Of a stretch of DNA of 64,000 bases, positions 30,353-54,969 are shown in pieces. Under the pieces are notes generated by a model. It saw nothing but the letters and a program-made list of their open reading frames with translations. It made no database searches and was not told where the DNA came from. Every line of letters begins with the position of its first letter. Position 1 is the stretch's first letter. Origin of the DNA: Sedimentisphaerales bacterium. Its GTDB lineage: Bacteria; Planctomycetota; Phycisphaerae; Sedimentisphaerales; Anaerobacaceae. Location: assembly GCA_963708075.1 (NCBI GenBank), contig OY970194.1, positions 2,560,001 through 2,624,000 on the forward strand. The letters run 5' to 3'. The position numbers and the translations under genes were made by a program.

Positions 30353-30356
30353 GAAT

Positions 30357-31985: not shown

Positions 31986-32134
31986 TCAACGGCTCCCTAT
32001 CCGGCTCCGCATGGAGAGTCACCGAACCCACGGCATCGCCGCGGCCTGAATGCCATGGCGCGCGAAACGAGAGGGACGCGGACAGCCGATCCGCGTTCCC
32101 CGCAAGGTGTCAACGTCAGTCCACAAGCCCGCTC

Positions 32135-34246: not shown

Positions 34247-35412
34247 TTGAGAACCTCCAGTTGTGACTGAGCAGGCATGTTCCGTTCCCTGATTTCCTGC
34301 CGGCCAATAACCTGATGAACAAAATAGCGAGGCCTCGCCCGCACATCATGATAGATGCGACCAATGTATTCCCCGAGCAACCCCATCGCGACAAATTGGG
34401 CGCCGATGAGGACGAAAAGAACGGCAAAGAGGGTGAAGACGCCCTCGGCTGCCCATCCCGGCCCATGGACCACTCGCATGATTAGCAGGAAGACGCCAAA
34501 TCCCATGCCCACGACCGATGTGATGCCGCCAAGGATACTGAGCAGACGCAGCGGGAAGGTCGTCATACTCGTCAACAGATCGAACTGGAGATTCACCAGT
34601 TTCCACAGGCTGTACTTCGAATCCCCACTGGATCGCTCGGCGTGGTGGACCTCGATTTCCGTTGCCTTTCGCGCGAAGCTGTTGGCCAAAACGGGAATGA
34701 ACGTACTTCGCTCGGGACACTGCAGCATGGCGCTAATGACGTGGCGTCGATAGGCGCGGAGCATGCAGCCGTAATCATGCATTGTCACGCCGGTGGCCCG
34801 CCGGGCCGCATGGTTGACGATCCGCGAGGCGACACGTCGAAACAACGGGTCCTGCCGAGGCGTGCGGATCGTGCCGATCACATCGTACCCTTCCGCCATC
34901 TTCCGAACGAGCTTCGGAATCTCCTCGGGCGGGTTCTGCAAGTCGGCATCGAGGGTCACGACGATCTCGCCTCGGGATTCGCCAAAGCCGGCCATCACGG
35001 CGGCATGCTGGCCATAGTTGCGGTTCAATAAGACCCCCACGACCCTTCCGGCGTTCTGTTCCGCCGCCTCGGCGATGATCTTCGATGAGCTATCCGAGCT
35101 GCCGTCATCCACGAGAATAATCTCGAATGACCCCTCCGTGCCTTCACAGCTATCCAGACAACGTCGGATGAGCTCCGGCAGACACCTCTCTTCGTTAAAT
35201 ACGGGGATCACCAGGGACACAGCCGGTCTGGTCTGCGGCGATGGCGAGACTGTGCGATGAAGGTCAGGTTGACAGATGCCTTCCTCCAATGTGTCGTCGT
35301 TAACGGTACGAAGCGGCGTCGCGTCGTGAGCGGCCGGTTGGGAATGCACCAAAACGGTCTTCGCATGTCCTGAGCTATGCAGACCTCGTACTTCGTCGGA
35401 CGTCTTGGCCAT
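34243..35412 (-). CDS. arnC: Undecaprenyl-phosphate 4-deoxy-4-formamido-L-arabinose transferase
   Basis: [62 protein letters not shown]-terminal extension of about 60 aa. Confidence 0.93.
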
Positions 35413-35415
35413 CGG

Positions 35416-36612
35416 TTAGCACCTTTCTTCAAGGATCGTCTTGCCTGCGGCAGAGGATGGCTGCTTGTGCAAGACGTCTTTGATTGTCTCGATAACGTCG
35501 TTGACGTCGCGTTCCATCATATCCGGGAAGAGGGGGAGCGAACAGATTCGGTCGGAGTTCCATTCCGTGTTCGGCAATGCGCCTCGGCGCATCCCCATGC
35601 ACTCCCTGTAGTACTTTTGCAGGTGCACGGCCCGGAAATGCAGGCCGGTCCCGATGTTTCTCTGCTTCAGTCGCAGCATGAACTCATCACGGGTCAGGCC
35701 TGCTTTGTCGATGTCCAGCCGGACAATGAATAGATGCCAGGCATGCTTCATCGGGTACGGGGGATCGGACAGGGGGATGATCTCCTCGATCTCCGCTAAC
35801 CGCTCGCGGTATTCCATGGCCAGTTCGGTTCGCCTGGCGTTGAGCTGATCCACGCGGGCCAACTGCCGCAATCCCAGGACGGCGGATATGTCCGTCATGT
35901 TGTACTTGTACCCGGGCTCCATGACCTCTGCCTGGGGCGAGCGTCCCTGCGTGTGGCGATCGTAGGCGTCCACTCCCAACCCATGAAATTTCAATCGCTT
36001 CACGCAGTCGAGGAGGGCCTCATCGTCCGAGCAGAACATACCCCCCTCGCCCGTCGTGATGTTCTTGATGGGGTGAAATGAGAAGATCGAGGTGCCGCTG
36101 TGGCCCACGTGCAGGCCGTGGTACTGCGTCCCCAGAGCGTGTGCCGCGTCCTCGATGAGGGGAATGTGCCTGGCGGCCGCCAATTGACGAATGGGTCCGA
36201 TGTCGGCCGGGGCTCCTGCAAAATGGACGGGGATGATCGCCCGCGTTCTGTCCGTCAGGCACGCTTCAATGGACTGGCAGGAAACCATCAACGTGTCACG
36301 ATTCACGTCGGCGAAGACTGGTGTGGCGCCGGCAAGAACAGTCAGATTCACGGTGGAAACCCACGTCATCGAAGGGGTGATTACCTCGTCGCCGGGACCG
36401 ACCCCGAGAGCCTTGAGGGCCAGGTGCATACCTGCCGTCGCCGAGGACAATGCCACGGCCCCGGGACAGCCGACGTACTCCTGGAATCTCTGCTCGAACT
36501 CTGTGGTTCTTGGGCCGGTCGTGATCCAGCCGCATCGCAGCACCTCCGCCACGGCGGCGATATCCTCCTCCGTGATCGATGGCCGCGAGAATGGTAGAAA
36601 ATCAGTTCGCAC
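35416..36612 (-). CDS. arnB: UDP-4-amino-4-deoxy-L-arabinose aminotransferase
   Basis: [36 protein letters not shown] (PLP lysine), [10 protein letters not shown]. Confidence 0.95.
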
Positions 36613-38488
36613 GACTCATACCCTCCGCAACCCCTGCCGCTTTCGAAGCATTCATGGGACACCCCCAGAACCAGGCTATCCATTTCTCCTTCTTGGAAGA
36701 CTTGGATTCCCACGGGTATAGTTGCTCACGAAGGCTCTGCTGCCTCCACAGCTCGCTGACGATTTCTTCGGGAAGCCCGGCCACATACCTGTTCTGGGTA
36801 ATGACCACGCCAGGAAGACTCGATTCCAGAAAATGGCGGAATTGGTCGGCGTCTTTGATGATCTGTATCGGCTCATCGGCATGGAGATAGAAAAGCAGGT
36901 TCGCGTTCGCCTTGGGGAACACAGCGATCCTCTCCGGCGGGAGCTCGGCTGACCTCGCCCGCAATTCACCGGCGAATGGGCGCTCCGTTCGATTCATGTC
37001 GAGGATGTTCTGTTGCCAGCAGAAGTAGCCTCCCAGCAACACAGCTGCGACTCCGATCCATGGCTGGATGACTCTGCGCTCGCTTGGGGAGAGCTTTGAC
37101 CATTGTATGAATTTGTCAAGGCTCACACCCAGGAGAATTGCGGCCGCCCCAATGCCAAGACTGACCAAATAGAATCTCAGAGGGGCTTGGAAGTGCAATA
37201 CTCTCCCGGCAATCGTCAAAATCAGGGGAATTGCCAGGTCGAATGCAACCGCCCCGATCAGCAGGGCTCTCTGGGCCGCCAGCCCCCATTGCCGAAGGTC
37301 ATCCATTCCAGGCTCACGGATCCAGGCGACGAAGACAGCCATCAGTAGAGCACAAAGCGGCAGGATCGGCAGGATGTAATAGCCGCGTCGCGAGCCGGAG
37401 AGGCTGAAGAACAGGAACACCAGCACAATGGCCCAGATCAGCCATCGTGTATGACTGTCGAGCCCCTTCCTGTACTTGGCCATGCCAACCGCCGCCAGCA
37501 CAAACAAGGGGGTCCAAGGCAGCAAGAGACGCGGCAGCTCATAAAGGTACAGGTAGATCGGACCTTTGTGGTCGAGGGGTTGGAAATAGCGAAGAATATT
37601 CTCCTGAAAGACCAGCGCCAGGCCGCTCGACTGATAATCGGCGGGCTGAGTCAGAGAGGCATACACAAACGGAGCCAGGTAGACAAGCGACGCAAGCCCG
37701 AAGGCCCCTATGTGCTTGATACTAAAGAGGATGCGCCAGCGTCTTTCCGTCAGCATATCCGGCAATACAATGAGAATGGGAACGACCACCGCCGCCAAAC
37801 CTTTGGTTAAGGCGCCGATAAAGGCGATCAGGTAGAAAACGAGCATGGTGGGAAAACCTGGACGATCACGTCTTGACCAATACCAGACGACCGCCAGCAT
37901 GATGGCCGCGAGATTCTCGGCATCGGCCGTGCCGGTCCGGGCCCAAAAGATGAAGGAATACGTTGTCAGGAGCAGCCAGCCGGCGATTCTTCCCGTCTGG
38001 GCCGACCACAACCGGGCCCCGACCTTCATCGTCGCCCAGACGGCCGCCACGCCGGCAACGGCGCTCGGAAGCCGTAAGACCAGTTCATTCAGCGTGCCGG
38101 TCATCGCAACGATGGCTGCACGGAGCCAGTACGTCAGCAGCGGTTTGTCAAAGTAGGGCTCTCCGCCAATCGTGGGATGAAAGAAATCGCCCGTCAGAAA
38201 CATCTCACGTGTGACCTGGGCCCAGCGCCCCTCCGCCGTCCACAGACTGCAAGTACCCAATCCCCACAATAGCAGGAACGCTCCAGTCGACAGCAGTGCG
38301 ATATCTGCCCACTGCACGTGCCCGCCAACTGTGGCATCCGACTCAATCTGCCGGACATTGTCCTTAACGCAACCGGAGTATATATCCATGTTTAGATTCC
38401 GCTCGAAGACCGGCCTCCGTAGTCTCCAAGCTGAACGCATTACATCGGGGGCAATGACTGATGCCTGACGAAGCATCGTCCCGACCAA
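36602..38488 (-). CDS. ArnT-like GT-C glycosyltransferase
   Basis: [44 protein letters not shown]. Start uncertain (possibly 38389). Confidence 0.85.
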
Positions 38489-38532
38489 CCGGTAGACTCC
38501 GACAGTCCTAGCCCGGAGGGTACAGATCGAAC

Positions 38533-38549
38533 CTTAATGGAAGATGAAG
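38533..38549 (-). promoter_or_regulatory. Possible PmrA/OmpR-type direct-repeat box upstream of the arn operon
   Basis: Minus strand CTTCAT-N5-ATTAAG; each half is one mismatch from CTTAA(T/G). Weak match. Confidence 0.25.
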
Positions 38550-38795
38550 AAATCGGGGGCCATAGTAAGGAAATTACTGATTCCCCGGGAATAAGTCCGC
38601 CACTGTCGTATTGGGGGGCCTTTTTTGCTCGCGCCATGCTGCCTCCCGAACAGGACACGGGTGGGGCCTGCGATGGCGAGAGTCACGGTTGCACATCTCT
38701 GCCGGGCAGGTACAATGGGCAGGTCTTGGCACTGAGGTCAAGGAACATAGGTTAGAGAACGTGGCCTGGGGGCCCATGGAATTGGTGGCCGGACA

Positions 38796-39474
38796 ATGAG
38801 AGTGTTGATTATCGAAGATGAGATCAGACTTGCGCAATATCGCCAAGGCGCTCAAGGAGACAGCGTCGTACGCAGTGGATATTTCCACCGATGGCGAGGA
38901 TGGCTGGCATCAAGCTCTCTCAAATCCCTACGACCTGATCCTGCTCGATCTGATGCTGCCGAAGGTGGGTGGGTTGGAGATCCTCGCAGAATTGCGCCGC
39001 CAAGGCAATCGGGTCCCCGTGCTCATACTTACCGCGAGGGACACCACCCGGGACATTATCCGGGGTCTGAACTCAGGCGGTGATGACTACATCACGAAAC
39101 CCTTCGACATGGGCGAGCTCCTGGCTCGCTGCAAGGCGATGGTGCGTCGAACCTATGATCGTCCCGACCCGGTTGTGCGTATCGGTGAGTTGTCGGTAGA
39201 TACATCCAGCCGGCTGGTGACCCTTCGAGGCCGGCGCGTGACGCTATCCGCGATGGAGTATCGGCTCCTGGAGTATCTCGTGTGGCGGGCCGGTCAGATC
39301 GTCAGCAAGGCGGAGATCATCGAACACCTGTATGATTTCAATGCCGAAACCTTCTCAAATGTTGTCGAGGTGTACATATCCACCCTTCGCAGAAAACTGG
39401 ATGTCGATCCCGAACGCTCCCTGATTCACACCGTCCGGGGTTTGGGATACGTCCTGGGAGAGGTATCCACGTGA
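38796..39474 (+). CDS. OmpR-family response regulator (frameshift ~38838)
   Basis: MRVLIIEDEIRLA in one frame, then NIAKAL...YDLILLDLMLP, VLILTAR, DDYITKPF, SNVVEVYI, IHTVRGLGY in the next. Confidence 0.92.
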
Positions 39475-40895
39475 AGCCTCTATCCATCCAGTTGCGGTTG
39501 TCTCTGATGGTGTTGATTCTCACTCTGGCCATCATTGCGGTCTTGTCTGTTGCGGCTTATGTTGAGTTTGAGGAGTCATTGCTGGGGAACACTGACGACA
39601 CTCTGAGAGCCATGGCCGAAGGGATACAGGCCGAACTCGATGAACGGGACAGCAGAGAGCACCAGGAAGCCGAACTGCGGGCCATCACGGGGTACGGCAC
39701 CTCCGAACGCTCCAGCCAGTATCGTATCTGGTTGGATGGAAGTGAAAGAGACATGTTTGCCAGCGAATCATCCAGTGATCCACTACCCCAAGCACTCCTT
39801 CGCCTGCCCCTCGGCGAACAACCTGACGTGAACGATTTCAGCCTGTTCAATATTACCGGCGATCCAGAATCGGGCACGGAATATACGCTCCGCGCCATAT
39901 GGATGCGCCATGTCTTGCATGAGGAGGTTGCCAATATCCTTGTGGCACGCTCGTGTGGATATGTGTATCACGAGGTGGCTGAGTTCCTTGGGCTCCTGTT
40001 CATGGCGGGAGGTTCCGTCACATTGCTGACTGTGCTGCTGGTGCCGATCATCATCTCGCATGGGCTGCACGCAATCACAGACCTCGGAGCGAAGTTGGGA
40101 CAAATCACGCACAGTAGTTTGAAGAATGACAGTGACATCATGCCGGACGTCCCTATTGAGCTGAAGCCATTCAAGGCGGCGTTGCAGGAGATGTTGTCGC
40201 GTCTGCATAAGACGATGCAGCAGCAGGAGCGGCTTACTGCAGATGTCGCGCACGAGCTGCGCACGCCTCTGGCGATCATCAAGAGCACGCTCCAGACGCT
40301 GCGAATACAAGCCCGACCGGCGATCGAATATGAGGAGGGCATCGACGATACGCTCAAAGACGTCGATCGCATGGAGCATCTCGTAAGCCAGCTTCTCTCT
40401 TTGGCACGACTGGACGCCGCCGACGCCGTCCACAATCCGGCGGAAATCCGCTTGGACACCCTGCTGAGATCGCTGACGGATGTATTCCACGACCGGGCCG
40501 GCCAGCAAGGAGGACGAGTGGTCTTCACGAACAGCGCCCCAGTCTCGATCCGGGGCGATGAAACCGAATTGTGGCAACTCTTCAGCAATCTGCTCGACAA
40601 CGCCATTCGACATGGACCGCGGGGAGGACTCATTCGCGTGGACCTCCAGAACGAGCCGGACACATGGGCAATGGTCTGTGTCCATGACGAAGGCGGCGCC
40701 ATTCCGGCCGAAAGCCTCCCTCACTTATTCGATCGTTTCTATCGGGTGGATTCCTCCCGGTCTCAGACCTCCGGCGGCAGCGGCCTGGGGTTGGCCATTG
40801 CCTGCGGAATCGTTCAGCGGCACCATGGAGATATCGCAATCACGTCAGACCCGAAAGCCGGGACCTCGGCCATCGTCCATCTGCCACGGCTATAA
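39471..40895 (+). CDS. Sensor histidine kinase
   Basis: Two TMs, HAMP-like linker, ADVAHELRTPL, NLLDNAIRH, FDRFYR, GSGLGLAI. Confidence 0.95.
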   Translation: MKPLSIQLRLSLMVLILTLAIIAVLSVAAYVEFEESLLGNTDDTLRAMAEGIQAELDERDSREHQEAELRAITGYGTSERSSQYRIWLDGSERDMFASESSSDPLPQALLRLPLGEQPDVNDFSLFNITGDPESGTEYTLRAIWMRHVLHEEVANILVARSCGYVYHEVAEFLGLLFMAGGSVTLLTVLLVPIIISHGLHAITDLGAKLGQITHSSLKNDSDIMPDVPIELKPFKAALQEMLSRLHKTMQQQERLTADVAHELRTPLAIIKSTLQTLRIQARPAIEYEEGIDDTLKDVDRMEHLVSQLLSLARLDAADAVHNPAEIRLDTLLRSLTDVFHDRAGQQGGRVVFTNSAPVSIRGDETELWQLFSNLLDNAIRHGPRGGLIRVDLQNEPDTWAMVCVHDEGGAIPAESLPHLFDRFYRVDSSRSQTSGGSGLGLAIACGIVQRHHGDIAITSDPKAGTSAIVHLPRL

Positions 40896-42162: not shown

Positions 42163-43500
42163 ATGGCTGGGTGTACCATGACTGAGAAAGCAACCCTGTT
42201 CATCAGCCATTCGACGCATGGACTTCCCAAGACCGACGCTTGTGTGCAGGTCCGGGACGCGCTGGCATCGACCTTCCGAGCAAAGAACTGGGACTTCTTC
42301 CTGGACATGAAGGCTATCGCTCCCGGGAACTCCTGGAGAGCGGACATCCTTCACAGCCTGGCCACGGCTCGCGCGGGGATCATCCTGTTCAATCAGAACG
42401 CCTGTGCTTCCACCTGGGTCACAGCGGAGGCTCTCATCCTGTGCTTCCGAAAATCGATCGATCCGGACTTTCCCGTCGTCCCTGTGCTCTTTCCAGGAGT
42501 CAGCCTGGACACCACCTGCATGAAGGCATACGAGCCGTTTCAACTCAATGAGATACAGGCGGATAGATATGACCCCGCTTCCGCTTTGTCCCCGGATGAG
42601 TTTGCGCAAGGGTTGGCGAAGAACGATCGTCTCAAAAGAGCCATGGAACGTCCGGGGAACGGCAGCGCCTGGGTGAAAGCCGTCACGGATTTGCTGAGCA
42701 GGTTGGATATTGATGTCTTGCGCCGCGCGGCCGAGCAACTGTCACTGGACTGCGGATCCCCCCTGCCCCCCGATGAGATGGCCCGCTGTCTGGCATGCTC
42801 CATCGCCAGCGTCATGCACGAGAGGCAGCCGCAGGATTGTGTACCAGCGTTTGGCGAGTTGATACCACCATTACTATCTGAAAAGGCGGCCTCATTGAGA
42901 CGCTATTTGGAGGCCAAATGGGTCGAGAACGAAAGCGTCGAGATTCTCCTCCACGCTTCGCACACGCCGGAAGCCCGAGGTCTTCTGGCGTTGAACACCT
43001 CACACGTACAGGTCACAAATCGCTATATAGATCGGGTGAACTACGAGCTTCCGGCGGGACGCACCCCCTTGCAGCGGATTTCGGTGCCCGAACCGAAAGG
43101 CGATTTCGAGGAACACGGTCTGATTCATGAAGTCGAGTCTGCCATCCGGGCCGTCCTCGTGAAGGATCCTCTCTACGATTCGGAAGGCAACGAACTCCCG
43201 TTAGAAGGGGCGGTGCGAGAGCTGTTATCGTCGGCGAAGAGATTTGCGATCTGTATCTTGCCCCCCCAATACACCTCCAAAGACGTCCTGCTGGAGTTGC
43301 GCAGACGTTTTTCCCGCATCATCTTCATTGTGGAGGCGGGCGACAAGAGCGAGCACATGACGAACTGCTTCGCCGCCGGTGCCAGGCAGCTCAATCCGCT
43401 GCTGAAACCGGCGAAATTGAACGAGTTTGCAGTTCTTCGTCGAGATCTGGACGCTACGTTCGATCAATACAATATCCTCAATTCTGGTGCGCACGTATGA
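42163..43500 (+). CDS. TIR domain protein with uncharacterised C-terminal region (VMAP/inactive-STAND-like adaptor)
   Basis: GGGGAG RBS; LFISHS...FFLDMKAIAPGNSWRADI...GIILF...STWVTAEA, with the catalytic-position Glu. ATGA overlap with the MoxR gene. Confidence 0.8.
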   Translation: MAGCTMTEKATLFISHSTHGLPKTDACVQVRDALASTFRAKNWDFFLDMKAIAPGNSWRADILHSLATARAGIILFNQNACASTWVTAEALILCFRKSIDPDFPVVPVLFPGVSLDTTCMKAYEPFQLNEIQADRYDPASALSPDEFAQGLAKNDRLKRAMERPGNGSAWVKAVTDLLSRLDIDVLRRAAEQLSLDCGSPLPPDEMARCLACSIASVMHERQPQDCVPAFGELIPPLLSEKAASLRRYLEAKWVENESVEILLHASHTPEARGLLALNTSHVQVTNRYIDRVNYELPAGRTPLQRISVPEPKGDFEEHGLIHEVESAIRAVLVKDPLYDSEGNELPLEGAVRELLSSAKRFAICILPPQYTSKDVLLELRRRFSRIIFIVEAGDKSEHMTNCFAAGARQLNPLLKPAKLNEFAVLRRDLDATFDQYNILNSGAHV

Positions 43501-44528
43501 AAACGACCCCACAATACGAACCGTTCCTCCCCTGGGCCAACCTGCCGCGGTACGGAATTCAGGGTGTATCGCCGGATGACCGATCCGGAGACATTTACCT
43601 TGAAGACGAGAGACTTCGGCTTGTGACCGAAGTGGCGATCGTCGCCAGGAGGCCATTGCTGATTCGCGGCGAGCCCGGCTCCGGCAAGTCCTCGTATGCG
43701 CCGTTTGCGGCCCGAAACCTCAACTGGCGTTACTACGAGTACACTGTAACGGGCCGGACGGAGGCAAAGGATCTGCTCTGGCGATTTGACGCGCTTGCTC
43801 GCTTGCGCGACGCTCAAGCGCAAGTGAAGCGAGAGCAAATGAAGCCTGCGCGTTATGTGACGCCGGGGGTCCTGTGGTGGGCTTTCAATCGGCAGGACGC
43901 GATAGCATTCTCCGCAACCGTGCACTCGAGGCGAACCGCGACCGCGACCCAGAGCCGGATCACGGAGCCTTTCGCCGAGGTGAACCGCAACCGCAATCCC
44001 GCGGGGGTGGTGGTCCTGATCGACGAAATCGACAAAGCGGATCCAGACGTGCCGAACGATCTCCTGGAAGTCATGGGGATGAATCGCTTTCGAGTGGAAG
44101 AAGCGGATCACGAGGTGGAGAGCCAACTGGCTGCCTCGCCGGGAGATTTCGACCCGGCGAATCGGTATGGTAGACTGCTGATTGTCATTACCACCAACGA
44201 GGAGCGCGACTTGCCGGCGGCTTTCCTGCGCCGATGCATCGTCCACACCTTGGAGGAACCGAAAGACAAGGAGTCAAGGATGCAACGACTGGGCAGCATC
44301 GCCCGCCTGCACATGGCGTCCCTGATCGAGAACCAACCCCAGGGTGTGGATTTTGTCAAACAGATCGCCGGGAAATGCGAGGATTTGCGTGAAGAGGCCC
44401 GACACAAGCAGCGGCGCGGGCCGAGCATAGCCGAATTTCTGGATGCCGTCCGGGTCTGTCTGACCCTCGGCGTTCCGCCTACCGATGCACGGTGGCAAAC
44501 GATTCAGCAAAATGTTCTGCTCAAGTAG
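43497..44528 (+). CDS. MoxR-family AAA+ ATPase
   Basis: RPLLIRGEPGSGKS, LLWRFDALARLRDA, VVLIDEIDKAD...PNDLL, IVITTNEERDLPAAFLRRC. Confidence 0.93.
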   Translation: MKTTPQYEPFLPWANLPRYGIQGVSPDDRSGDIYLEDERLRLVTEVAIVARRPLLIRGEPGSGKSSYAPFAARNLNWRYYEYTVTGRTEAKDLLWRFDALARLRDAQAQVKREQMKPARYVTPGVLWWAFNRQDAIAFSATVHSRRTATATQSRITEPFAEVNRNRNPAGVVVLIDEIDKADPDVPNDLLEVMGMNRFRVEEADHEVESQLAASPGDFDPANRYGRLLIVITTNEERDLPAAFLRRCIVHTLEEPKDKESRMQRLGSIARLHMASLIENQPQGVDFVKQIAGKCEDLREEARHKQRRGPSIAEFLDAVRVCLTLGVPPTDARWQTIQQNVLLK

Positions 44529-44579
44529 ATCACGATCCCTTTCAATAACGAGGACGTTTCCCCAACAGGAGAGGCCAGG

Positions 44580-45551
44580 ATGAACATGTGGCAAGGACAT
44601 CCGCGGAGCGAAGTGGGTCTTGCCGAGATGGTGCAAGCCTGCTATGTCCTCAATTTGTGCGAGGAAACCCATCTGCAGTGGCTGGCTCAGTCTCTGGGCC
44701 TGTTTTGGGCCAAAGTACCCGACCGCGAGGGCGATTCCACAGCCGCCGGAGCTGCGCCGAGCCCAGCGTCCTCTCCGCCCCCCGCCACCCCACCGAAACC
44801 CGAGCCACCCCGAAAGCTCCAATTGCTCGATCCGGTGGCTCAGAAGCCCATGGCCTTTGACGTGTTGCTCGCCGGGGATGCAGAGAGGGTCCGATCTGCG
44901 GCTCAACTCCGAGTTCCGGCCGCACCCACCAGCCGGGAATCCTCCTCGCACCAACCGTTGTTCGGGGATCGGTGGTTCCTCGGCATCATAAGTGCCATTC
45001 TCGCCACCCAAATGACCTCCCACGAAATCGACCTCCAGCTTCTGTGGCGGAGTATCATCCATGGTGAGGTCTTCAAGAAGCTTCCGCTGCGAAAGCATTC
45101 GAGTTTGATCAAGGGCGTGCATCTGCTCCTGGATCGCTCGGAATCGATGCAGCCGTTCTGGCGTGACCAGACCCAATTGGTGAGCCGACTGCGTCGCCTC
45201 CTCGGCAGACCCAAAGTTCAGACCACATGGTTCGAGTTTGATCCGCTCAGGCCCCGTGAGACACGTCTGATCTGGCCCGCGCGCATGCCGAATCGCTTTC
45301 GGGAGACAACCCCCGTTCTCCTCGTCACGGATTTTGGAATCGGAATGGACCCCCTGGCGGCTTACTACATGGAGTGGGAGCCTTGGCTTCCCGTTTTCCA
45401 GCTTGCCCGGAGTTGCCGCTGTCGAGTGCTTGCCCTGGTTGCGGCTCCGAGCAACCTGTGGCCCGCGGGCTTGGAACAGTTCGTCGATGGGGCTGTCGTT
45501 TGGGATCGTGAAACATCTCCACAGGTGGCCACACGCCTATGCCGAACGTAG
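44580..45551 (+). CDS. vWA-domain partner of MoxR
   Basis: Pro-rich linker, MIDAS-like LLLDRSESMQPF, PVLLVTDFG. Confidence 0.75.
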   Translation: MNMWQGHPRSEVGLAEMVQACYVLNLCEETHLQWLAQSLGLFWAKVPDREGDSTAAGAAPSPASSPPPATPPKPEPPRKLQLLDPVAQKPMAFDVLLAGDAERVRSAAQLRVPAAPTSRESSSHQPLFGDRWFLGIISAILATQMTSHEIDLQLLWRSIIHGEVFKKLPLRKHSSLIKGVHLLLDRSESMQPFWRDQTQLVSRLRRLLGRPKVQTTWFEFDPLRPRETRLIWPARMPNRFRETTPVLLVTDFGIGMDPLAAYYMEWEPWLPVFQLARSCRCRVLALVAAPSNLWPAGLEQFVDGAVVWDRETSPQVATRLCRT

Positions 45552-48500
45552 AGACAATCGCTCACGATGAATCGGGTGCCATCGAGGAGGCACGCTCTGA
45601 AGTGGCGGCTTGCGAAAGGAGGCGGCCTGACGTCGTGGCGTTGGCGGAACTCGCCTCCCTGGCTCGGTTCATCGAACCGGAGTTGCTTCGCGCGATCCGA
45701 CTGGAACTGGGCGAGCGAGCCGCCGGATCGACACGAATGACGGTGGCCAGCGAGTCGGCTGTCTGGTTCAGCCCATTTGTCGCAAGTCGGGGCGCGGACG
45801 GTATTACCTTCCTGCCGGAGTATTGCCACGTGCTTCGACCGCGACTGGCCGCCCATCGCCTCCTTCTGGAGGACACCAGGCGCGTCGTTGAGGAGTGCCA
45901 CAAATCGGCCCCCGACGTGCTTCAGTGGGAAGAGAGAATCGTATATCTCGCATTAACCGGACGGTTGGACGAACTGGAGAATGAAATCGTACGGGGCATC
46001 AAAAGCATCTCTCAAGGAACCAGGCCGCCGCTGGTCAATTGGATCCTCGAAATGGGGCCCCGTCTGCCGCAAGAGGTGTCCAACAACGCACTGTTGAACA
46101 AGCTCCACAGCCTGGCCGCCGGTTTGTCGCTGCGACGAACTCCCACCGGCGCCGGCAGCAAGGGACTGATTCTCGATTTCTCCTCCTTGCCGACGCGCGA
46201 ATTGGGGGTAGCGCTTCGAGAGAACAACTTCGTGATCGGGGACGTACCGCAAGCCACTGTCGGAATTCGAGTGCCCGACTGGGAGCCGGTGGAAATCGAT
46301 ATTCTGACACCCAAGGAATTGATTACCGGCCAACCCCTTGTTGTATCCCGCGACGGATTTGCGGAAGTCAGCGCCTCCAGGGGAGTCGTGCGGATTCAGA
46401 CGGTGGCTGGCCACGTCTACGAACTCGATCCGGCCTCTTTCCGGCCCCTCCAGTCTCATACGATCTTCATCAGCTATAGTCACGAGGATGAAGCGTGGAA
46501 AGACAAGCTGCTGCCGCATCTCAAGGTGCTGGAACCGGCCGGCATGAACATCAGAATCCGGAGTGATATGGAAATTGACGGCGAGGCAAACCGGCATTCT
46601 CAAATCCAGGACGCCCTCGCCGAAGCCGACGTCGCCGTGCTGTTGATCTCGCCTGACTACCTGGCCTCTCGTTCCATAATGGATAAAGAGGTCCCCGTTT
46701 TGCTGGAGCGTCAGAAGAGGGACAACATCCTCTTGATTCCTCTGCTCGTTCGCCCATGCAGGTGGGAGACACACCAATGGTTGAGGGACCGACCGATGCT
46801 GCCCCGAGACGGCAGATCGATGGCGACCGATTATCCGGGAGAGAAGGCCGACACCGTTTTGAGCGAGATAGCTCGTTACATTCACGAGCATCTCACCCGT
46901 CTCGGAGACCCTTCGCAACGTGAGGCGATGCCGCGGGGCAGTGACGAGTGGCCCCAGTTATCACCGAACGATGTCTCCATTGCCAGGCTCCCTACTTCCA
47001 GCGAGCACTTCCTGGGTCGCGACGACGAACTGGCCTTCCTCGACGCAGCATGGGCAGGAGAACTCGGCTCGAAGTTCGTGTTGCACGATTCCCGCTTCAC
47101 GTATCCCAAACCTCGGCCCACTGTTCTCACTATCGTCGCTTGGGGCGGCGTCGGCAAATCCGCCCTCATCAACGAGTGGCTTGCGCGCATGGCGCGCGAT
47201 CACTGGCGTGGAGCGGAGCGGGTCTTTGCGTGGAGCTTCTACAGCCAGGGCACGCGGGACCGCGTCGCTTCCGGCGACTCGTTCATTGCCGAAGCGCTCA
47301 AGTGGTTCGGCGACCCGGACCCCGTCGCCGGGTCCCCATGGGACAGAGGCGAGCGGCTCGCCCGGCTCATCCGCCGGCAGCGCACGCTGCTTCTTCTGGA
47401 CGGCTTGGAGACGCTTCAGCAGCCGCCGAACGCCCCGGAGCCGGGCCAGATCACCGACCCCGCGCTGGCCGCGCTCGTCCGCGAGTTGGCCATGGAGAAC
47501 CCGGGCCTGTGCGTCATCACCACCCGTGAGCCAGTGACCGACCTCGCCGGCACACACCGGGCCACCACCGCCCAACTCGACCTCGCACACCTGTCCCCCG
47601 AAGCCGGCGCTATGCTCCTGCGTGAGTTGGGCGTGCAAGGCGCTGACAGCGAGTTACGGCAGCTCGTGCAGGAGGTGCGCGGCCATGCCCTGACTCTCAG
47701 CCTGACCGGCAGATATCTGGTAATGGCCTACGCCGGCGACATCCGTAAACGTGGGGAATTGAAGCTCCTCAAGGCCGACGCCGCAGTGCAAGGCGGCCAC
47801 GCCTTCCACATCATGGAAACGTATGACAGGTGGTTCCTCCGCGAGGGCGAGCAGGGCCGGCCGCTGATCGCCATCCTGCATCTGCTTGGCCTCTTCGATG
47901 GACCGGCGGACTCAGGATGTCTCGCCGCATTGCGGAGGAAGCCACCCATCGCCGATCTCACGGAGCCGCTTATGGGTCTTACCGACGCCCAATGGAGACT
48001 CGCTATCTCGCAGTTGGCCTCCTGCGGTCTCGTGTCAGTCCAATCTGACGAATCCGCAATCGATTCTCATGCCTTGGTCCGCGAGTATTATGCCGAGCAG
48101 GTGCGAACGCGATTTCCTGCGGCATGGAGGGAAGGTCAGAACCGATGCTATGAACACTTCCAACAGATTGCACCCGAACGGCCCGACACGCTGGAAGAGA
48201 TGATGCCGCTCTTTGCCGCCGTGACCCATGGCTGCCAGGCTGACCAGCATCAACGTGCGTTTGACGACGTGTACTACCGACGGATTTGCCGCGAGAGTGA
48301 GTTGTATCAACTCCGCAGGCTTGGCGTCTTCGGTGCTGATCTTGGGGCTATTTCCGGCTTCTTCCTCCGGCCTTGGGATGAGCCGGTCCCGACTTTGCGC
48401 GATTCCAGCCAAGCATGGTTGTTGAACGCGGCGAGTTTCGACCTGCGAGCTCTGGGCCGTCCGGCGGAGGCGATGCAGCCGGCGCGAACCAAACTGGACG

Positions 48501-49471
48501 CACACGCGGCCAAGGAGGACTGGGAGCAGGTCGCACGCGCTGCTGGCCACCTCAGTGAGTCGAGCCTGACACTGGGAGCACTGACGGAGGCCGCGCAGTA
48601 TGCCAGGCAGAGTATGAACCTCGCTGATCGCAGCGAGAATATGTTGTGCCAAATCACCAGCCGCACGGCGCTGGCCGATGTCCTGCACCAAGCCGGCCAG
48701 TTGGAGGAAGCCGAAAAGCTGTTCCACGAGGCCGAAATCATGCAGACGAAGACGCAGCCGGAGTACCCGCTGCTCTGTTCATTGCAGGGCTACCGGTATT
48801 GCGACCTGTTGTTGACCCTGGGCGGTTGCGGGCCGTTGCTGTCGGATTCAGTCAGCCGATCTCAGAAAGCTCCTGTCGAATCGCCGACGCGTTCTGCCTT
48901 CACCCCGGGCTCTGCCTGCGAGCCCCAGTCCGCGATCCAAGCGTGCCACGCGGTGCAGCAACGCGCCACTCAAACGATCAGGATTGCCGAGCAGGGCCAA
49001 TGGCCTCTCGACATTGCGCTCGATCATCTGAGTCTGGGTCGAGCCATCCTGCTGGAGCATGTCCTGGGGCCCGATGATCAACCGCTGGACCCTGCATCCA
49101 AACACCTGAATGCCGCCGTGGACGGCCTTCGGCGAGCCGGAAGACAGGATTGCCTGCCTCTCGGCCTGCTGGCACGAGCCGCGCTGTGGCGGGTCGGCGG
49201 CGACCCGGTCGGCGCGGCGCGTGATTTGGGCGAAGCGAAGGGACTGGCCGACCGGAGCGGTATGAAGCTCTTCCTGATCGACGGTCTGATCGAGCAAGCG
49301 TGTCAATTGATTCAGGAGCCGGGGAGCAGGACTCAGAAGTCGACGGGCGAGCGGCTGGAGTCGGCCCTGGAGTGTGTGGCAAGAGCTAGGACGCTCATCG
49401 AATCCACCGGCTATCACCGCCGTGACAGAGAGATCCGTTACCTCGAACAGAGCATAGAAAGACAATCGTAA
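45539..49471 (+). CDS. NLR-like protein: N-terminal domain, TIR, STAND NTPase, TPR
   Basis: N-terminal LAELASLARFIEPELLRAIRL...ESAVWFSP; TIR IFISYSHED...AVLLISPDYLAS...DKEV; FLGRDDEL; Walker A AWGGVGKS; Walker B LLLLDGLE; CVITTR; GHALTL; TPR-like C-terminus. Confidence 0.88.
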   Translation: MPNVETIAHDESGAIEEARSEVAACERRRPDVVALAELASLARFIEPELLRAIRLELGERAAGSTRMTVASESAVWFSPFVASRGADGITFLPEYCHVLRPRLAAHRLLLEDTRRVVEECHKSAPDVLQWEERIVYLALTGRLDELENEIVRGIKSISQGTRPPLVNWILEMGPRLPQEVSNNALLNKLHSLAAGLSLRRTPTGAGSKGLILDFSSLPTRELGVALRENNFVIGDVPQATVGIRVPDWEPVEIDILTPKELITGQPLVVSRDGFAEVSASRGVVRIQTVAGHVYELDPASFRPLQSHTIFISYSHEDEAWKDKLLPHLKVLEPAGMNIRIRSDMEIDGEANRHSQIQDALAEADVAVLLISPDYLASRSIMDKEVPVLLERQKRDNILLIPLLVRPCRWETHQWLRDRPMLPRDGRSMATDYPGEKADTVLSEIARYIHEHLTRLGDPSQREAMPRGSDEWPQLSPNDVSIARLPTSSEHFLGRDDELAFLDAAWAGELGSKFVLHDSRFTYPKPRPTVLTIVAWGGVGKSALINEWLARMARDHWRGAERVFAWSFYSQGTRDRVASGDSFIAEALKWFGDPDPVAGSPWDRGERLARLIRRQRTLLLLDGLETLQQPPNAPEPGQITDPALAALVRELAMENPGLCVITTREPVTDLAGTHRATTAQLDLAHLSPEAGAMLLRELGVQGADSELRQLVQEVRGHALTLSLTGRYLVMAYAGDIRKRGELKLLKADAAVQGGHAFHIMETYDRWFLREGEQGRPLIAILHLLGLFDGPADSGCLAALRRKPPIADLTEPLMGLTDAQWRLAISQLASCGLVSVQSDESAIDSHALVREYYAEQVRTRFPAAWREGQNRCYEHFQQIAPERPDTLEEMMPLFAAVTHGCQADQHQRAFDDVYYRRICRESELYQLRRLGVFGADLGAISGFFLRPWDEPVPTLRDSSQAWLLNAASFDLRALGRPAEAMQPARTKLDAHAAKEDWEQVARAAGHLSESSLTLGALTEAAQYARQSMNLADRSENMLCQITSRTALADVLHQAGQLEEAEKLFHEAEIMQTKTQPEYPLLCSLQGYRYCDLLLTLGGCGPLLSDSVSRSQKAPVESPTRSAFTPGSACEPQSAIQACHAVQQRATQTIRIAEQGQWPLDIALDHLSLGRAILLEHVLGPDDQPLDPASKHLNAAVDGLRRAGRQDCLPLGLLARAALWRVGGDPVGAARDLGEAKGLADRSGMKLFLIDGLIEQACQLIQEPGSRTQKSTGERLESALECVARARTLIESTGYHRRDREIRYLEQSIERQS

Positions 49472-49949: not shown

Positions 49950-50993
49950 ATGGACACGAAAATCAGCGAGGACGCGGCGAACGTAGAAGCGTTGATTCGA
50001 AGGGCAGAGAAAGACATCGGCTCGGATGATCTTGAGGATTACCGCATCCGGCCGACGATCTTCCCTCAAACCACCCAGCGCCCGGCGCCGGAACTTGCCG
50101 ACGTATTGCGCGACAGTCTGCTGACTGAGACGGCGATGCGCTATGAAACGAAAGACGCCAAGGCGCAGGCGGCTCAGAGGTCACTCAAGCGGTTGGCGAA
50201 CTGTAGTACCTGGTCAGTTTTCGTCGTGACGGTAACGGGTGCCCTGCTTGCCAGCCTGAGTATTTTCTCTGCCGCCGACACGAGTTCACGTTGGAGGCCA
50301 GTGGTTATATTGCTGAGCTGTTGCGCCTTATTGGGCGGGGCGTTGGCAAGCTGGTGCCTTTGCCGCATCGACAAACAACATCTCCTTCGAGACTGGATGA
50401 GCGCGCGCGCTGGTGCGGAGTCAGAGAGGCTGGCCTACTTCGAACGGCTCGTTCAGCGCATCACGGAGAATCACGCGGAGGACCCGCGTGTGATGTTGCT
50501 CTGCCTGGAATTCTTTCGCCGCTATCAACTTGCCGTACAGCAGGTGTACTATAGGACGCGTACCCAGGATCATGGTAGCTCGCGAAGGAAAACGGTCGCC
50601 ATCGGGGCTGTTGCGGTAGCCATCCTTTCCGTCGGTTCCGGCGGTTTCGGCATATGGGCATCCATCCGACCTGAGGTGCTTCCGCTGGCAGCACTTGGGG
50701 CTATCGGAAGCGCCTTAGCCATCGTGGCCACTCGTCGTGAGGAACTCAACCAGGACGAACGTAACGCTGAACGATTTGAACGCACCTCAGATGCGTTGAG
50801 CCATGTCAGGGAGCGCCACTCCGCCGTCCAGAATGCTGTTGCACGCGGCAACTCGCGGGTCCTCTCACAATATGTCGCTGCTGTTCATGAGCAGGTTTCA
50901 CTTGAACATCGGCAGTGGCTTGCAGACGCTGAGACCATAGGCGTACAAATCAAGGAGTTGAACGCATCTCTCAAAGACCTTGGGGAGAAGTGA
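49950..50993 (+). CDS. DUF4231/SLATT-like membrane protein (two 2TM units)
   Basis: First TM pair followed by DWMSARAGAESER; QQVYY...; second TM pair; ends HEQVSLEHRQW. Confidence 0.7.
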   Translation: MDTKISEDAANVEALIRRAEKDIGSDDLEDYRIRPTIFPQTTQRPAPELADVLRDSLLTETAMRYETKDAKAQAAQRSLKRLANCSTWSVFVVTVTGALLASLSIFSAADTSSRWRPVVILLSCCALLGGALASWCLCRIDKQHLLRDWMSARAGAESERLAYFERLVQRITENHAEDPRVMLLCLEFFRRYQLAVQQVYYRTRTQDHGSSRRKTVAIGAVAVAILSVGSGGFGIWASIRPEVLPLAALGAIGSALAIVATRREELNQDERNAERFERTSDALSHVRERHSAVQNAVARGNSRVLSQYVAAVHEQVSLEHRQWLADAETIGVQIKELNASLKDLGEK

Positions 50994-51383
50994 GGTTGTC
51001 GACCACCTCTTCTGTCCATGGCGTGCAGCGATGGTTCCGTCGCTTCGTCCTCCAGCTCCAGAAGGTGTTCCCCGGGCTCCAGCCGGATCATCCGGTTCGT
51101 GTCACCTGGAATCGTCTCGCTGATTCTGCCCCCCGCCTCACATGGGAATTGTATTACAGGCCGCGCCGCGTCCGTTCTCTTGCCACGCACTTTCTGGGTG
51201 CACGACAAAAAAGTGGCACTCGATCCGGGTGGCAGCGTCAAGGCCGAAGGCCTTGGCGATGGTTATGCTGCGTCCGAGGCAGGCCATCGCCAAGCTGCGC
51301 TTGACGCTGCCACCCAAGAGTCTCATCCTCGCTCTGCCACAATCTTGTCGTACACCCCACTTTCTCAGGCCCGGAATAAATGC

Positions 51384-51584: not shown

Positions 51585-53139
51585 ATGACGACATGTATTC
51601 CGAACTACGACGCGCTCTATGTTGTCTCTGACATTCATATGGGGGGCGGTAAGCCGCGCTTTCAGATCCTGAACCAGGGGTCCCGCCTCGGGAAGCTGAT
51701 CCAAAGGCTGGCCGGAGAGCGCCCCGATGACGAGGTCGCACTCGTGTTGAATGGCGACGTCATCGACTCCCTCGCGGAAGATTCCATCGGGTATATTGCG
51801 ATAGACAATGCCGACCAGATGATGCGTCATATCTATCGAGATCCAGCCTTCGAGCCGGTGTGGCGCGGCTTGGCCGAATTTGTGAAGCAGGATCATCGCC
51901 ACTTGATCTTCGTCCTGGGCAATCACGACCTCGAAATGGCGCTCCCGCACGTCGAGTACTCGATACGCCAGCAGATCACACAAGGAGACACGCTGCGGCA
52001 GGGTCGCATCACGTTCGCTACGCGCGGTGGCGGCTATGCATGCAAGGTCGGCCACTCTCATGTGTTCTGCACGCATGGGAACGAAGTCGACGATTGGAAC
52101 GTCGTCGATTATGGCGCCCTTGGCAGGCTCGCACGAAGCATCAATGTTGGACTGAGCCTCAAACAGTCCGAGTGGACTCCCAATGCCGGGACGCGGCTTG
52201 TCATCGATGTCATGAACGGCATCAAACAGGACTACGCCTTCGTCGATCTGCTGAAACCCGAGAACCGAGACCGTCGTCCCCATCTTACTCGCTCTCGAGC
52301 CGTTGACAATAAAGGATGTCCTTGCGTTTCTGCCCGGCATTATGGCCGGCAAGTTCTGGGGCGGGCTTAGAAGGCGGGGAATCCTCTCCGGCGACGTGGA
52401 CAGCATGGAGGCGATCACAGATGCGAGGGCGGCGGGCGATGCCGTCCTCGATAGCTTGCTCGGCCCTCACTTCAAACAGGCCATCAAGCCCGGCGGCTCA
52501 TGCATGCCACAAGACACCGGCACCTTACTCCTTGACGTCGAGACATCCCTTGCCTCGGGCCCTGACAACCCAGACAGTGACGGGACGGAGCAGGGAGAGA
52601 CACTCGGAGTGATTCAGTGCGCCCAGTACGTTGCAGACCGCCTCAGGGGCGTCGATAAGGTAGAAGCGCTGCGTCGAGCCCTACAAGACTGGTTGTCGGA
52701 GGATGAGACATTCAAGCTCGACACTAAAGACAAGACCTACAAACGGGTGACTGACAAAGTCGGCTCCGCCGTGGATTTCGTCATCACTGGTCACACCCAC
52801 CTGGAGCGGGCCATTGCCGACGAGTCCAAGCGGCGTTTCTATTACAACTGCGGGACATGGGCTCGCTTGCTCCGTCTCGGGCCCAAGACTCTGTCTGACC
52901 CCGAGACGTTCCAAACAATCTGGGATGTCATACGCGCCGGAGAGATGCAGAAACTCGATGAGACAACTGTCAAGGCTGACGACGGATCGGAGGTGCCTCT
53001 GATTCTACTCAAGTCGACTGTGGTGAGAATCTCTTCCGAGAATGGCAAGGTCGAGGGCAGACTTTTTCATGTGAGAGACACCGGCGCCGAGGATGTGGAT
53101 CTGGACCCGGTGCCTGACTCAACGTTCGAGAGGAGGTAA
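51585..53139 (+). CDS. Calcineurin-like metallophosphoesterase (frameshift ~52263)
   Basis: All five metal motifs across the two ORFs: SDIH, NGDVID, GNHD, THG, GHTH; also YYNCGTW. Confidence 0.88.
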
Positions 53140-53142
53140 GGG

Positions 53143-54969
53143 ATGGCTGCGGTACACGAAATCACGCTTGAGTTGTTACGTGAGGGCCGGGCGCACAACC
53201 AACTGCTATCGGAGTTTACCCGATACCTTGCCATCTGTGGCGACGCATCCCCGGCGACGGTCAGCTTCGAGAACCGAGCACCGAGCGCTTCTCGATCGTC
53301 TCGATCACCTTCGATATCTGGACGTTCGCGAGGCGTCGCGTCAATCGGCGGTGCGCGAGCTCGGTGAGATCAGCGGTCGCTTTCTAAGCAGTATCCCGGA
53401 GCTCAACGCGGAGCTATCGAGCCGGGAAAGTGCCGACTCCGACATCGTCCACTTGAGATTGGTTCTGTTCGGTTCCGAGCTTGGATTGATACCATTCGAG
53501 TTAGCCACCCTCCCCGAGGGCTCCGTGGGCGAGGGCCTGCCGCTTCTTCTCCAGTCGGAAACGCCCGTCACCCTGACCCGCGAGGTACGCCGCTGCCGCC
53601 CAGTCCCCGTAAACTGGGACCGCAAGCCTCGGATTCTTTTTGTTTCTGCCGAGCCCGGGGACTCGAGGTGCCTGTCAGGGCGCACCTGGGGGCCTTGCGA
53701 CGCGCCCTGGAGCCATGGATCACGTGGGAGAAGACGCCGGAAGAGCGTCTGCGGCACGTGAACGAGTCGCTGACCGTTCTGACGGGAGCCAGCCTCGAAG
53801 CTATCCGGGACGCCTGTCGTTCCAAGCCTTTCACCCACGTTCATATCCTTGCCCATGGGATCCCCACCGAGGAGGCGGGCGAGAAGCGCTACGGCCTGGC
53901 GTTGAGCTCCAAGCGAGACCCTTCTTCACTCGATCGGATCACCGGACGGCAGATCGCCGTCGCACTCCGAGAGGGGCGACTGGGCCCTTCCGTGGTGACG
54001 CTCATGACGTGCGACAGTGGCAATCAGGCTTCGGTGCTGATCCCGGGCGGGAGCATCGCCCACGAGCTGCATGCGTTCGGCATTCCGTGGGTCATTGCAT
54101 CTCAGTTTCCTCTCACGAAGACAGGTTCCGTCACCGTCGTGCAGTCTCTCTACGAGGGTCTGCTCCGGGGTGACGATCCCAGGTTCGTGTTGCAGTCGGT
54201 GCGGCGGTCTCTTTACACACGAGCACACACCGACCACGATTGGGCCAGCCTCGTCGCCTATGCAACCTTGCCGCTCGATTTCGACCGGCAAGTTGCCGCA
54301 CTACGCGATCGACAACTGCGAACGGCCCTGGATGTCGCCCTCGACAAGGCAACGAAGACTCCGAGCGGCGATGAGGCCCTGGCGAACAGCCTGCAGCAGC
54401 TCGAACATCGACTTCTCGGCCTGTCGGAAAGCGACGAACTGGGGGCTCGTGCTGAGCGCTCCGAGTGGCTCGGTAAGAAAGCGGCGATTTCGAAGCTGCG
54501 AGCCGACATCCTGTACAAGCGAAAGCTGCCGACGGAAGCACGGGAACTGCTGCGCTCCTCTCGATCCTTGTATGGAAGGGCTCGGGAAGCGGATTTGAAC
54601 AACCATTGGGTCGCGACGCAGTTCCTCTCTTTGAGCGTCATTCTCGGCGAGAAGGTGGAGGACTTCTGGTGGGGCCTCGCTCGCTACAGTGCAGAGCAGA
54701 CGTTGCAGCGGGCTTCGAGCCTCGACCGGGCCTGGGCGCATGGGACGCTGGCGGAACTCGAAATGCTCAGCATCGTGAACGCCACGGATGGTATCCAGGA
54801 AATCCAGAAGAGGGTCAAGGAGCACTGTCGCGCGATCGTGCAGCTCGTCGGGAAAGATTCTTTCGTAGTCTTTTCGACGCGGCGGCAATTCACGCGGTAC
54901 ATAGAGTGGTGGGATTGCGATCAGTGGCGTCCGATCGCGCAAACGGCGGTCGAAGTCTTGAATGCCTGA
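53143..54969 (+). CDS. CHAT (caspase-like) protease with C-terminal TPR-S/DUF4071-like region (frameshifts ~53272 and ~53658)
   Basis: GGAGG RBS; HLRLV...ELGLIPFEL, PRILFVSA, catalytic HVHILAHG and VTLMTCDSG, VIASQFP, DWAS; tail WAHGTLAEL...STRRQF. Confidence 0.85.

Follow-up and report, generated by a model that had tools for sequence, protein, structure and literature searches.

We analysed 64,000 nucleotides from a Sedimentisphaerales bacterium (contig OY970194.1, positions 2,560,001 to 2,624,000). This whole stretch is called the window, and positions are counted from its first letter unless another locus is named. Between 42163 and 49471 lie four genes of a MoxR-vWA ternary conflict system (Table 1). 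The four open reading frames (ORFs) and both overlaps that an initial annotation had read from the letters are present: genes 1 and 2 share an ATGA at 43497-43500, and genes 3 and 4 share 13 bases at 45539-45551. Its description of the system, with a stand-alone vWA protein and a fourth gene of the TIR-STAND-TPR type, also agrees with Pfam matches and with a comparison of homologous loci (which we number L001, L002, and so on). Its implication that the four-gene form is novel does not hold, as the same effector string is already tabulated as TERNS3 by Kaur et al. 2021 (Kaur, Iyer, Burroughs, and Aravind, eLife; PMC8195603; this and the other papers below are cited for the portions available). 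The stretch is present in contigs of freshwater sediment metagenomes among the public runs, and no RNA dataset with it is listed among those runs.

Table 1. Features of the locus, and the tails of gene 4 in homologous loci
Feature	Position	Strand	Details
Gene 1: third component, TIR+TERNS3-N+TERNS3	42163-43500	+	445 amino acids (aa) from the ATG at 42163; second ATG at 42178 is a possible start
Gene 1 TIR domain, intact W85xxxE89	42193-42567	+	Pfam TIR_2 (residues 13-113, E 1e-8)
Gene 1 all-helical segment, residues ~166-246	42658-42900	+	AlphaFold2 secondary structure; TERNS3-N by position, boundary inferred
Gene 1 TERNS3 core, predicted P-loop/STAND-ORC-type fold	42901-43482	+	Model, VIA-align; no Walker A, no acidic Walker B
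Gene 2: MoxR AAA+ ATPase	43497-44528	+	343 aa; Pfam AAA_5 (E 3e-12)
Gene 3: stand-alone vWA protein	44580-45551	+	323 aa; alignment, model, Foldseek
Gene 4: vWA-L head, conserved ~90-aa domain, TIR, STAND, TPR-like repeats	45539-49471	+	1310 aa
Gene 4 conserved head: vWA-L (residues ~20-200) and second conserved domain (~210-300)	45596-46438	+	Conservation, complex model
Gene 4 TIR; E384 kept, Ile at the Trp position of WxxxE	46463-46903	+	Pfam TIR_2 (E 2e-13); alignment
Gene 4 STAND NTPase core: Walker A AWGGVGKS (534-541), Walker B LLLLDGLE (617-624)	47111-47716	+	Pfam NACHT (E 7e-7); NB-ARC weak
SLATT+SLATT membrane effector gene (two 2-transmembrane units)	49950-50993	+	NCBIfam SLATT_1 (E 3e-6) and SLATT_3 (E 0.006), both below cut-off
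Hairpin-forming element of 162-170 bp, like a miniature inverted-repeat transposable element (MITE)	51188-51357		Between SLATT and phosphoesterase genes
Calcineurin-like metallophosphoesterase in two ORFs	51585-53139		Pfam; public-run contig one base shorter at 52263
CHAT (caspase-like) + TPR-S gene in pieces	~53143-54969		Pfam
Gene-4 tail, L001: TIR+TIR+STAND+TPR			Pfam
Gene-4 tail, L002 (Methanothrix): WD40	8905-13188 of L002		TIR-like domain by inspection
Gene-4 tail, L004 (Methanosarcinales archaeon): Roc GTPase + C-terminal TIR	9007-12081 of L004
Gene-4 tail, L005: STAND+TPR+TIR
Gene-4 tail, L006: SEFIR+cNMP-binding+STAND+TPR
Gene-4 tail, L007: short TIR tail
Gene-4 tail, L008: SEFIR+STAND+TPR
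Gene-4 tail, L009: NB-ARC+TPR			No TIR detected
Gene-4 tail, L015: CHAT+TPR			No TIR annotated

Gene 1 and the TERNS3 family

The supplement of the 2021 paper does not include a TERNS3 alignment, so we linked gene 1 to the published family by accession. A profile without the TIR domain (residues 166-445, 9 sequences) was searched against 1.84 billion proteins and gave 113 matches. We looked up 10 of these, picked because their lengths fit listed TERNS3 rows. Two of the 10 appear in the published TERNS3 table (KQP26499.1, E 5.5e-5, and WP_169849771.1, E 7.5e-4); the remaining eight are unnamed metagenome entries or a newer Streptomyces protein. As a TIR-free profile retrieved two proteins from the published table, we place gene 1 in the TERNS3 family. 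We also built a held-out profile from 51 distant matches, which omitted both listed proteins and the 28 closest. It gave the listed proteins 165 and 138 bits and gene 1 126 bits, while 20 shuffled sequences and a reversed one scored below 1. This confirms the result but is not fully independent of it, because the first profile selected the distant set. On this sequence evidence, gene 1 is a TERNS3 homolog, and the four genes are a further copy of the catalogued TERNS3 system.

The layout fits as well. In the published systems the order is TIR+TERNS3-N+TERNS3, MoxR, vWA, and vWA-L with effectors (PMC8195603). TERNS3 is most often fused to a TIR domain, and the listed TIR fusions are mostly ~400-470 aa (gene 1 has 445). 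The same paper describes vWA-L and its effectors as a separate gene beside the vWA gene in iSTAND2 and TERNS3 systems. By our count, its Figure 2-source data 1 has 79 TERNS3 rows. Four of them list vWA-L+TIR+STAND+TPRs (WP_030935396.1, WP_153453600.1, WP_158626622.1, and WP_159049469.1), 14 have a SLATT+SLATT neighbour, and many list no TIR on the vWA-L gene. The window shares the effector string, the SLATT+SLATT neighbour, and homology to two listed proteins. The order of first gene, MoxR, and vWA is the same in all nine loci that are long enough for a full first gene and in two plasmids. A difference is that gene 1 belongs to a divergent clade that includes archaeal loci, whereas none of the 79 rows in that table is archaeal; the two listed members were matched only weakly, at the E values given above.

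We compared the related subsystems too. The iSTAND and iSTAND2 systems are like the window in having an inactive STAND-type third component, as predicted here for gene 1, and a MoxR without the VMAP-type extension (PMC8195603, PMC7159879). Of the N-terminal motifs of VMAP-type MoxR, WxhapG and PsWRxa, neither pattern occurs in gene 2. Separate genes for vWA and for vWA-L with effectors are found in iSTAND2, in a minority of iSTAND systems, and in the window. Nevertheless, the Pfam iSTAND model (PF19995) matched neither gene 1 (E ≤ 0.1) nor any of the 94 profile matches that were scanned with Pfam (E ≤ 0.01; those left out were mostly fragments), although the modelled fold of gene 1 belongs to the iSTAND class. 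The iSTAND2 proteins differ in carrying mostly EAD or trypsin domains, and their two TIR fusions are 382-388 aa (PMC8195603). None of the 10 looked-up matches carries an accession from the iSTAND2 table, although these 10 were picked by TERNS3 lengths and no iSTAND2 profile was compared. In VMAP systems, the strict order of third component, MoxR, and vWA is the same, and variable effectors likewise follow a helical linker, but vWA and effectors form one chain there and two chains in the window (PMC7159879). Kaur et al., the authors of that 2020 paper, describe the fusion of effectors to vWA in both VMAP and iSTAND systems. VMAP-C had no match in gene 1 and one sub-threshold match (E 0.0093) among the 94 homologs.

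Nearly all homologs of gene 1 share a single architecture, and all eight full homologs from the fetched loci have an N-terminal TIR_2 domain. Within the family, E89 is present in 82 of 83 members and W85 in 74 (the other nine have Tyr or Phe). The gene 1 TIR is likely an active NADase, judging from these residues. The initial annotation had noted a catalytic Glu in both TIRs of the system. Both residues are there (E89 in W85-V-T-A-E89 and E384 in I380-M-D-K-E384), but the gene 4 TIR lacks the Trp of WxxxE.

The TERNS3 core is predicted to be a dead STAND/ORC-type ATPase. After strand 1 it has NTSHVQVT in place of a Walker A motif, and FAICILPP offers no acidic Walker B. GxxxxGK[ST] is absent from the C-terminal part in all 81 full-length gene-1 homologs. 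An AlphaFold2 model of this part (mean predicted local distance difference test score, pLDDT, 89.8) was compared to known structures with VIA-align. Model residues 82-275 match ORC2 with Z 10.3 (root-mean-square deviation 3.7 over 172 residues), followed by the AAA+ domain of Sir3 (Z 9.4), CED-4 (9.2), a plant NLR resistosome (8.4), and Apaf-1 (8.3). AAA+ or STAND ATPases make up most of the 15 chains at Z ≥ 8. In the ESM Atlas, the nearest clusters are iSTAND ones (score 0.86, a lead only), and a homologous-protein search with the profile of this part gave only 3 matches. The published description differs: in the available text of PMC8195603, TERNS3 is a novel alpha+beta domain and is not one of the inactive STANDs. 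Beyond that paper, TERNS3 as a whole word turned up in the literature only in one unrelated preprint.

The vWA protein and the fourth gene

Gene 2 has a Walker A motif (GEPGSGKS, 58), a Walker B motif (DEIDK), and an arginine finger (FLRR, 243), and it is 50-61% identical to its homolog in each of 13 loci. Gene 3 has no match in Pfam or NCBIfam. It consists of a short helical N-terminus, a Pro/Ala linker, and a vWA domain with DRSES (D185-x-S-x-S) and D251, which are nearly invariant in an alignment of 22 sequences. When we searched its model with Foldseek, the top match was a chain of the NorQ-NorD complex, and NorD vWA-domain entries ranked fifth and eighth (best E 2.2e-5, with low TM-scores of 0.26/0.33).

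The split between genes 3 and 4 needed checking because this assembly has indel errors. Two downstream genes are affected (public-run contigs are one base shorter at 52263 and at 53272-53273), and a paralog elsewhere in the genome is frameshifted. Comparison with homologs, as the initial annotation had suggested, was informative. All 21 other vWA homologs are stand-alone, with 316-353 aa. The 13 fetched loci all have gene 3 as an ORF of 291-353 aa closed by a stop codon. In 12 of them, a separate ORF for the gene-4 homolog comes next; the contig of the 13th ends before it. (Two of these loci, L004 and L012, appear to be one and the same sequence.) Offsets at the junction run from -13 to +16, with all three frames represented. 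The ATG at -13 is recurrent because it overlaps a conserved Cys codon. We therefore rejected an assembly frameshift: the homologs are short, the junctions differ, and no indel is listed in 44580-45600. A programmed frameshift is unlikely because the offsets fall in three frames. One public-run contig is identical over 44891-45571; it ends 20 bases past the stop codon, which is under our 31-base bridging rule. No fused form was seen among 7994 longer candidates, which is weak evidence, and fused vWA+vWA-L is listed in 4 of the 79 TERNS3 rows (PMC8195603). Overall, positions 44580-49471 are not a single ORF. The split is natural rather than an assembly error, and it is the comparative evidence, drawn from sequence, that we consider decisive.

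Conservation covers genes 1-3 and extends ~300 residues into gene 4. The initial annotation had missed this head of gene 4, which is 37-57% identical in 11 other loci and has 34 invariant columns. Our label for it, vWA-L, is indirect, because the supplement of the 2021 paper has no published vWA-L alignment; it rests on position, conservation, and a docking model. (In the ESM Atlas, the head matched unnamed clusters only.) In the docking model, the vWA-L head is predicted to bind the vWA protein. Gene 3 with residues 1-301 of gene 4 gave a complex score of 0.80, as compared to 0.00 for the best of three controls; of 157 solved complexes, 116 reached the mark for docking, as did 2 of 215 mismatched pairs. 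Contact agreement between runs was at least 73%, and the pLDDT of each partner was at least 83. The closest contacts pair invariant residues: P192, F193, R195, D196, W308, and D309 of gene 3 with P47, E48, L50, V69, E72, and W76 of gene 4.

Behind the head, the tail differs among the eight complete homologs (Table 1). In the window, the TPR repeats have weak Pfam matches. The tail of L004 is a Roco-like effector in an archaeal ternary system. After its WD40 repeats, the L002 tail has what we take, from motifs, to be a TIR-like domain, a CxxxCxxC radical-SAM-like region, and Lrp-like repeats. We also take the window's tail to be like those of prokaryotic NLR-like STAND defence proteins of the Avs/NACHT type, with effector, STAND, and TPR and intact Walker motifs. 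The difference is that gene 4 bears a vWA-L head and sits in a MoxR-vWA operon, and the Avs models of PADLOC did not match gene 4 at E ≤ 0.01. TIR-STAND-TPR relatives without the head exist in this genome (C1:1049264-1052242, up to 40% identical) and upstream in L006. Because of these headless relatives, it looks as if the gene-4 head had been added, as a tag, to an existing receptor. The relative in this genome is a frameshifted paralog that is 27-48% identical to gene 4 in pieces and has no match to the vWA-L head.

The initial annotation placed a TIR at both ends of the system. Genes 1 and 4 both have one, but the gene 4 TIR is internal (residues 309-455), behind the head. It also proposed that TIR-TIR contacts link the first and last proteins: the TIRs would co-assemble, with the NLR oligomer of gene 4 nucleating the TIRs of gene 1 and MoxR-vWA acting as the assembly chaperone. 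In its favour, 7 of 8 complete homologs from the close clade bear a TIR-like domain in gene 4 (six by Pfam, L002 by inspection), and the window's gene 4 TIR, without the Trp of WxxxE, could be a scaffold. However, the comparison lends this link little support, as the gene 4 TIR is swapped, moved, or absent. It can be N-terminal, C-terminal, or doubled, and its subfamily changes between loci; none was detected in L009 or annotated in L015. The gene-4 TIRs are 14-30% identical to each other (except for one close pair at 55%) and 16-21% identical to the gene 1 TIR. Adaptor pairs in such systems are usually close relatives (the EAD principle), whereas the two TIRs of the window are only 21% identical. 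We consider co-assembly of the TIRs unlikely. The other part of that proposal, that the MoxR-vWA chaperone assembles or releases the gene 4 product, is plausible.

Neighbourhood and distribution

Downstream of the four genes, the SLATT, phosphoesterase, and CHAT+TPR-S genes extend the defence island to ~55 kb. We found nothing in the literature on this set of TPR-S, caspase, calcineurin, and SLATT genes. The metallophosphoesterase is probably a single gene that an assembly error has split, because a public-run contig lacks one base at 52263. In the CHAT+TPR-S gene, contigs of two runs are one base shorter at 53272-53273; coverage is poor at a second break, near 53700. Four other near-full copies of the MITE-like element share at least 99% identity, and blastn gives 311 pieces across the genome. 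In a contig of run X2 the element is skipped, and 8 bases fit either side, like a target-site duplication. Upstream, at 25384-40895 on the minus strand, is a cluster that presumably resembles an arn/pmr-type lipid A aminoarabinose modification operon, beside which we take the genes at 38818-40895 to be a two-component pair (both labels come from motifs).

Named carriers of homologous loci are Prosthecobacter, Pyrinomonadaceae, Methanothrix (on a 3.0-Mb chromosome), and a Methanosarcinales archaeon, so TERNS3-type systems occur in methanogenic archaea. The four core genes are also present on two Streptomyces plasmids. One of these (L015) carries, in order, DUF4231, TIR-X, MoxR, vWA, and head+CHAT+TPR; the DUF4231 gene beside its core genes may be compared to the SLATT neighbour in the window. 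The system was not found in 40 relatives, including 23 of the same genus, or in 400 other genomes of the phylum, and there was no further copy in 400 genomes around G401. This is the patchy, mobile distribution that is typical of defence loci.

A role outside defence would be that MoxR-vWA is a chaperone that folds or assembles a large signalling protein. MoxR-vWA pairs do have housekeeping roles, and by structure gene 3 matches the NorQ-NorD complex best. But this does not fit well with the patchy distribution, with hypervariable TIR, STAND, and caspase tails, or with the neighbouring SLATT, metallophosphoesterase, and CHAT+TPR-S genes, and we consider it very unlikely.

Direction of signalling

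What might the system do? PMC8195603 predicts that TERNS3 systems act against invaders via an NAD-derived signal, and it describes them as enriched in multicellular or aggregating hosts. A 2026 preprint describes a related MoxR-vWA pathway that acts in defence against epibionts, which supports the class, not this member. Our preferred reading, to which we give an even chance, is a TERNS3-type anti-invader switch in which the variable gene 4 chain senses, MoxR gates, and the gene 1 TIR is the output. The TPR/STAND tail of gene 4 would sense an invader such as a phage. Its vWA-L head, which is predicted by modelling to dock on the vWA protein, would together with it form, from two chains, the unit that is a single chain in VMAP systems. 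The MoxR ATPase would remodel this complex and switch on the fixed gene 1 TIR, and its use of ATP may set the threshold. The TERNS3 core, as a dead STAND-type domain, would be an oligomerising scaffold for the TIR. Clustered gene 1 TIRs might then cleave NAD+ or make a cyclic ADP-ribose signal, and the SLATT gene may add a membrane effector. The ATPase motifs are intact in genes 2 and 4. We infer that the signal runs from gene 4 to gene 1. The same direction was argued for VMAP systems, in reverse of Kaur et al. (Doré et al., PMC10907252).

In the direction published by Kaur et al., gene 1 senses and generates the signal, and MoxR-vWA releases or activates the NLR-like TIR killer encoded by gene 4. 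The dead STAND core would bind nucleic acid or protein of the invader, and the TIR would make an ADP-ribose-type signal. In PMC8195603 the TERNS3 TIR is taken to generate the signal, and the vWA-L fusions are taken to be effectors. That paper also suggests that inactive STANDs serve as receptors for nucleic acid, and our model of the TERNS3 core has such a fold. Furthermore, WxxxE favours ADP-ribose cyclisation (10.1101/2022.05.07.491051), and gene 4 of L006 has a cNMP-binding domain. On the other hand, the variable part of the system is gene 4, which is rich in receptor-type repeats (TPR, WD40), while gene 1 is near-constant; we identified no dedicated ADP-ribose signal receptor in the window's operon; and PMC10907252 argues the reverse for VMAP systems. 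Because gene 4 tails carry effector domains and WxxxE favours cyclic products, we regard the published direction as a real possibility and nearly as likely as the one from gene 4 to gene 1.

Several points weigh against our preferred switch. Gene 4 tails also carry effector-type domains (TIR, CHAT caspase), which would fit signalling in the opposite direction, and contact of gene 1 with genes 2-4 lies outside the docking model. The docking itself used shallow alignments of 22 and 12 rows. Also, the docked parts are halves of a sometimes-fused gene, a class that is prone to pass, which makes the result less surprising. The STAND-like fold of the TERNS3 core comes from a model of 9 sequences with 6-15% identity to the top structural matches, and Foldseek found nothing for this model at E ≤ 0.001 (best E 8.9e-3). 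PADLOC gave TIR-level matches only. Finally, our literature search found no experimental test of a TERNS3 system.

The layout of the system has been published since 2021. What is new here is the model of the TERNS3 core as a dead STAND, the docking model of vWA and vWA-L, and the archaeal members. From these we would tentatively generalise that TERNS3 is a third dead STAND ATPase. In this proposal, iSTAND, iSTAND2, and TERNS3 would share one design, a scaffold bearing an output enzyme and gated by MoxR-vWA, and the head would be a plug-in tag through which the chaperone could control any protein of NLR-like, Roco, WD40, or caspase type, in bacteria as well as methanogenic archaea.

Control of this kind, through the plug-in tag, would mean that a prokaryotic chaperone licenses NLR-type receptors. 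If the dead STAND and the plug-in tag hold, then three MoxR-vWA subsystems would collapse into one mechanism, and which end senses and which end kills would become directly testable. As a discovery this is modest. Its value is as a test case, with four intact core genes, a mutable E89, and a predicted interface between P192/F193 of gene 3 and P47/V69/W76 of gene 4.

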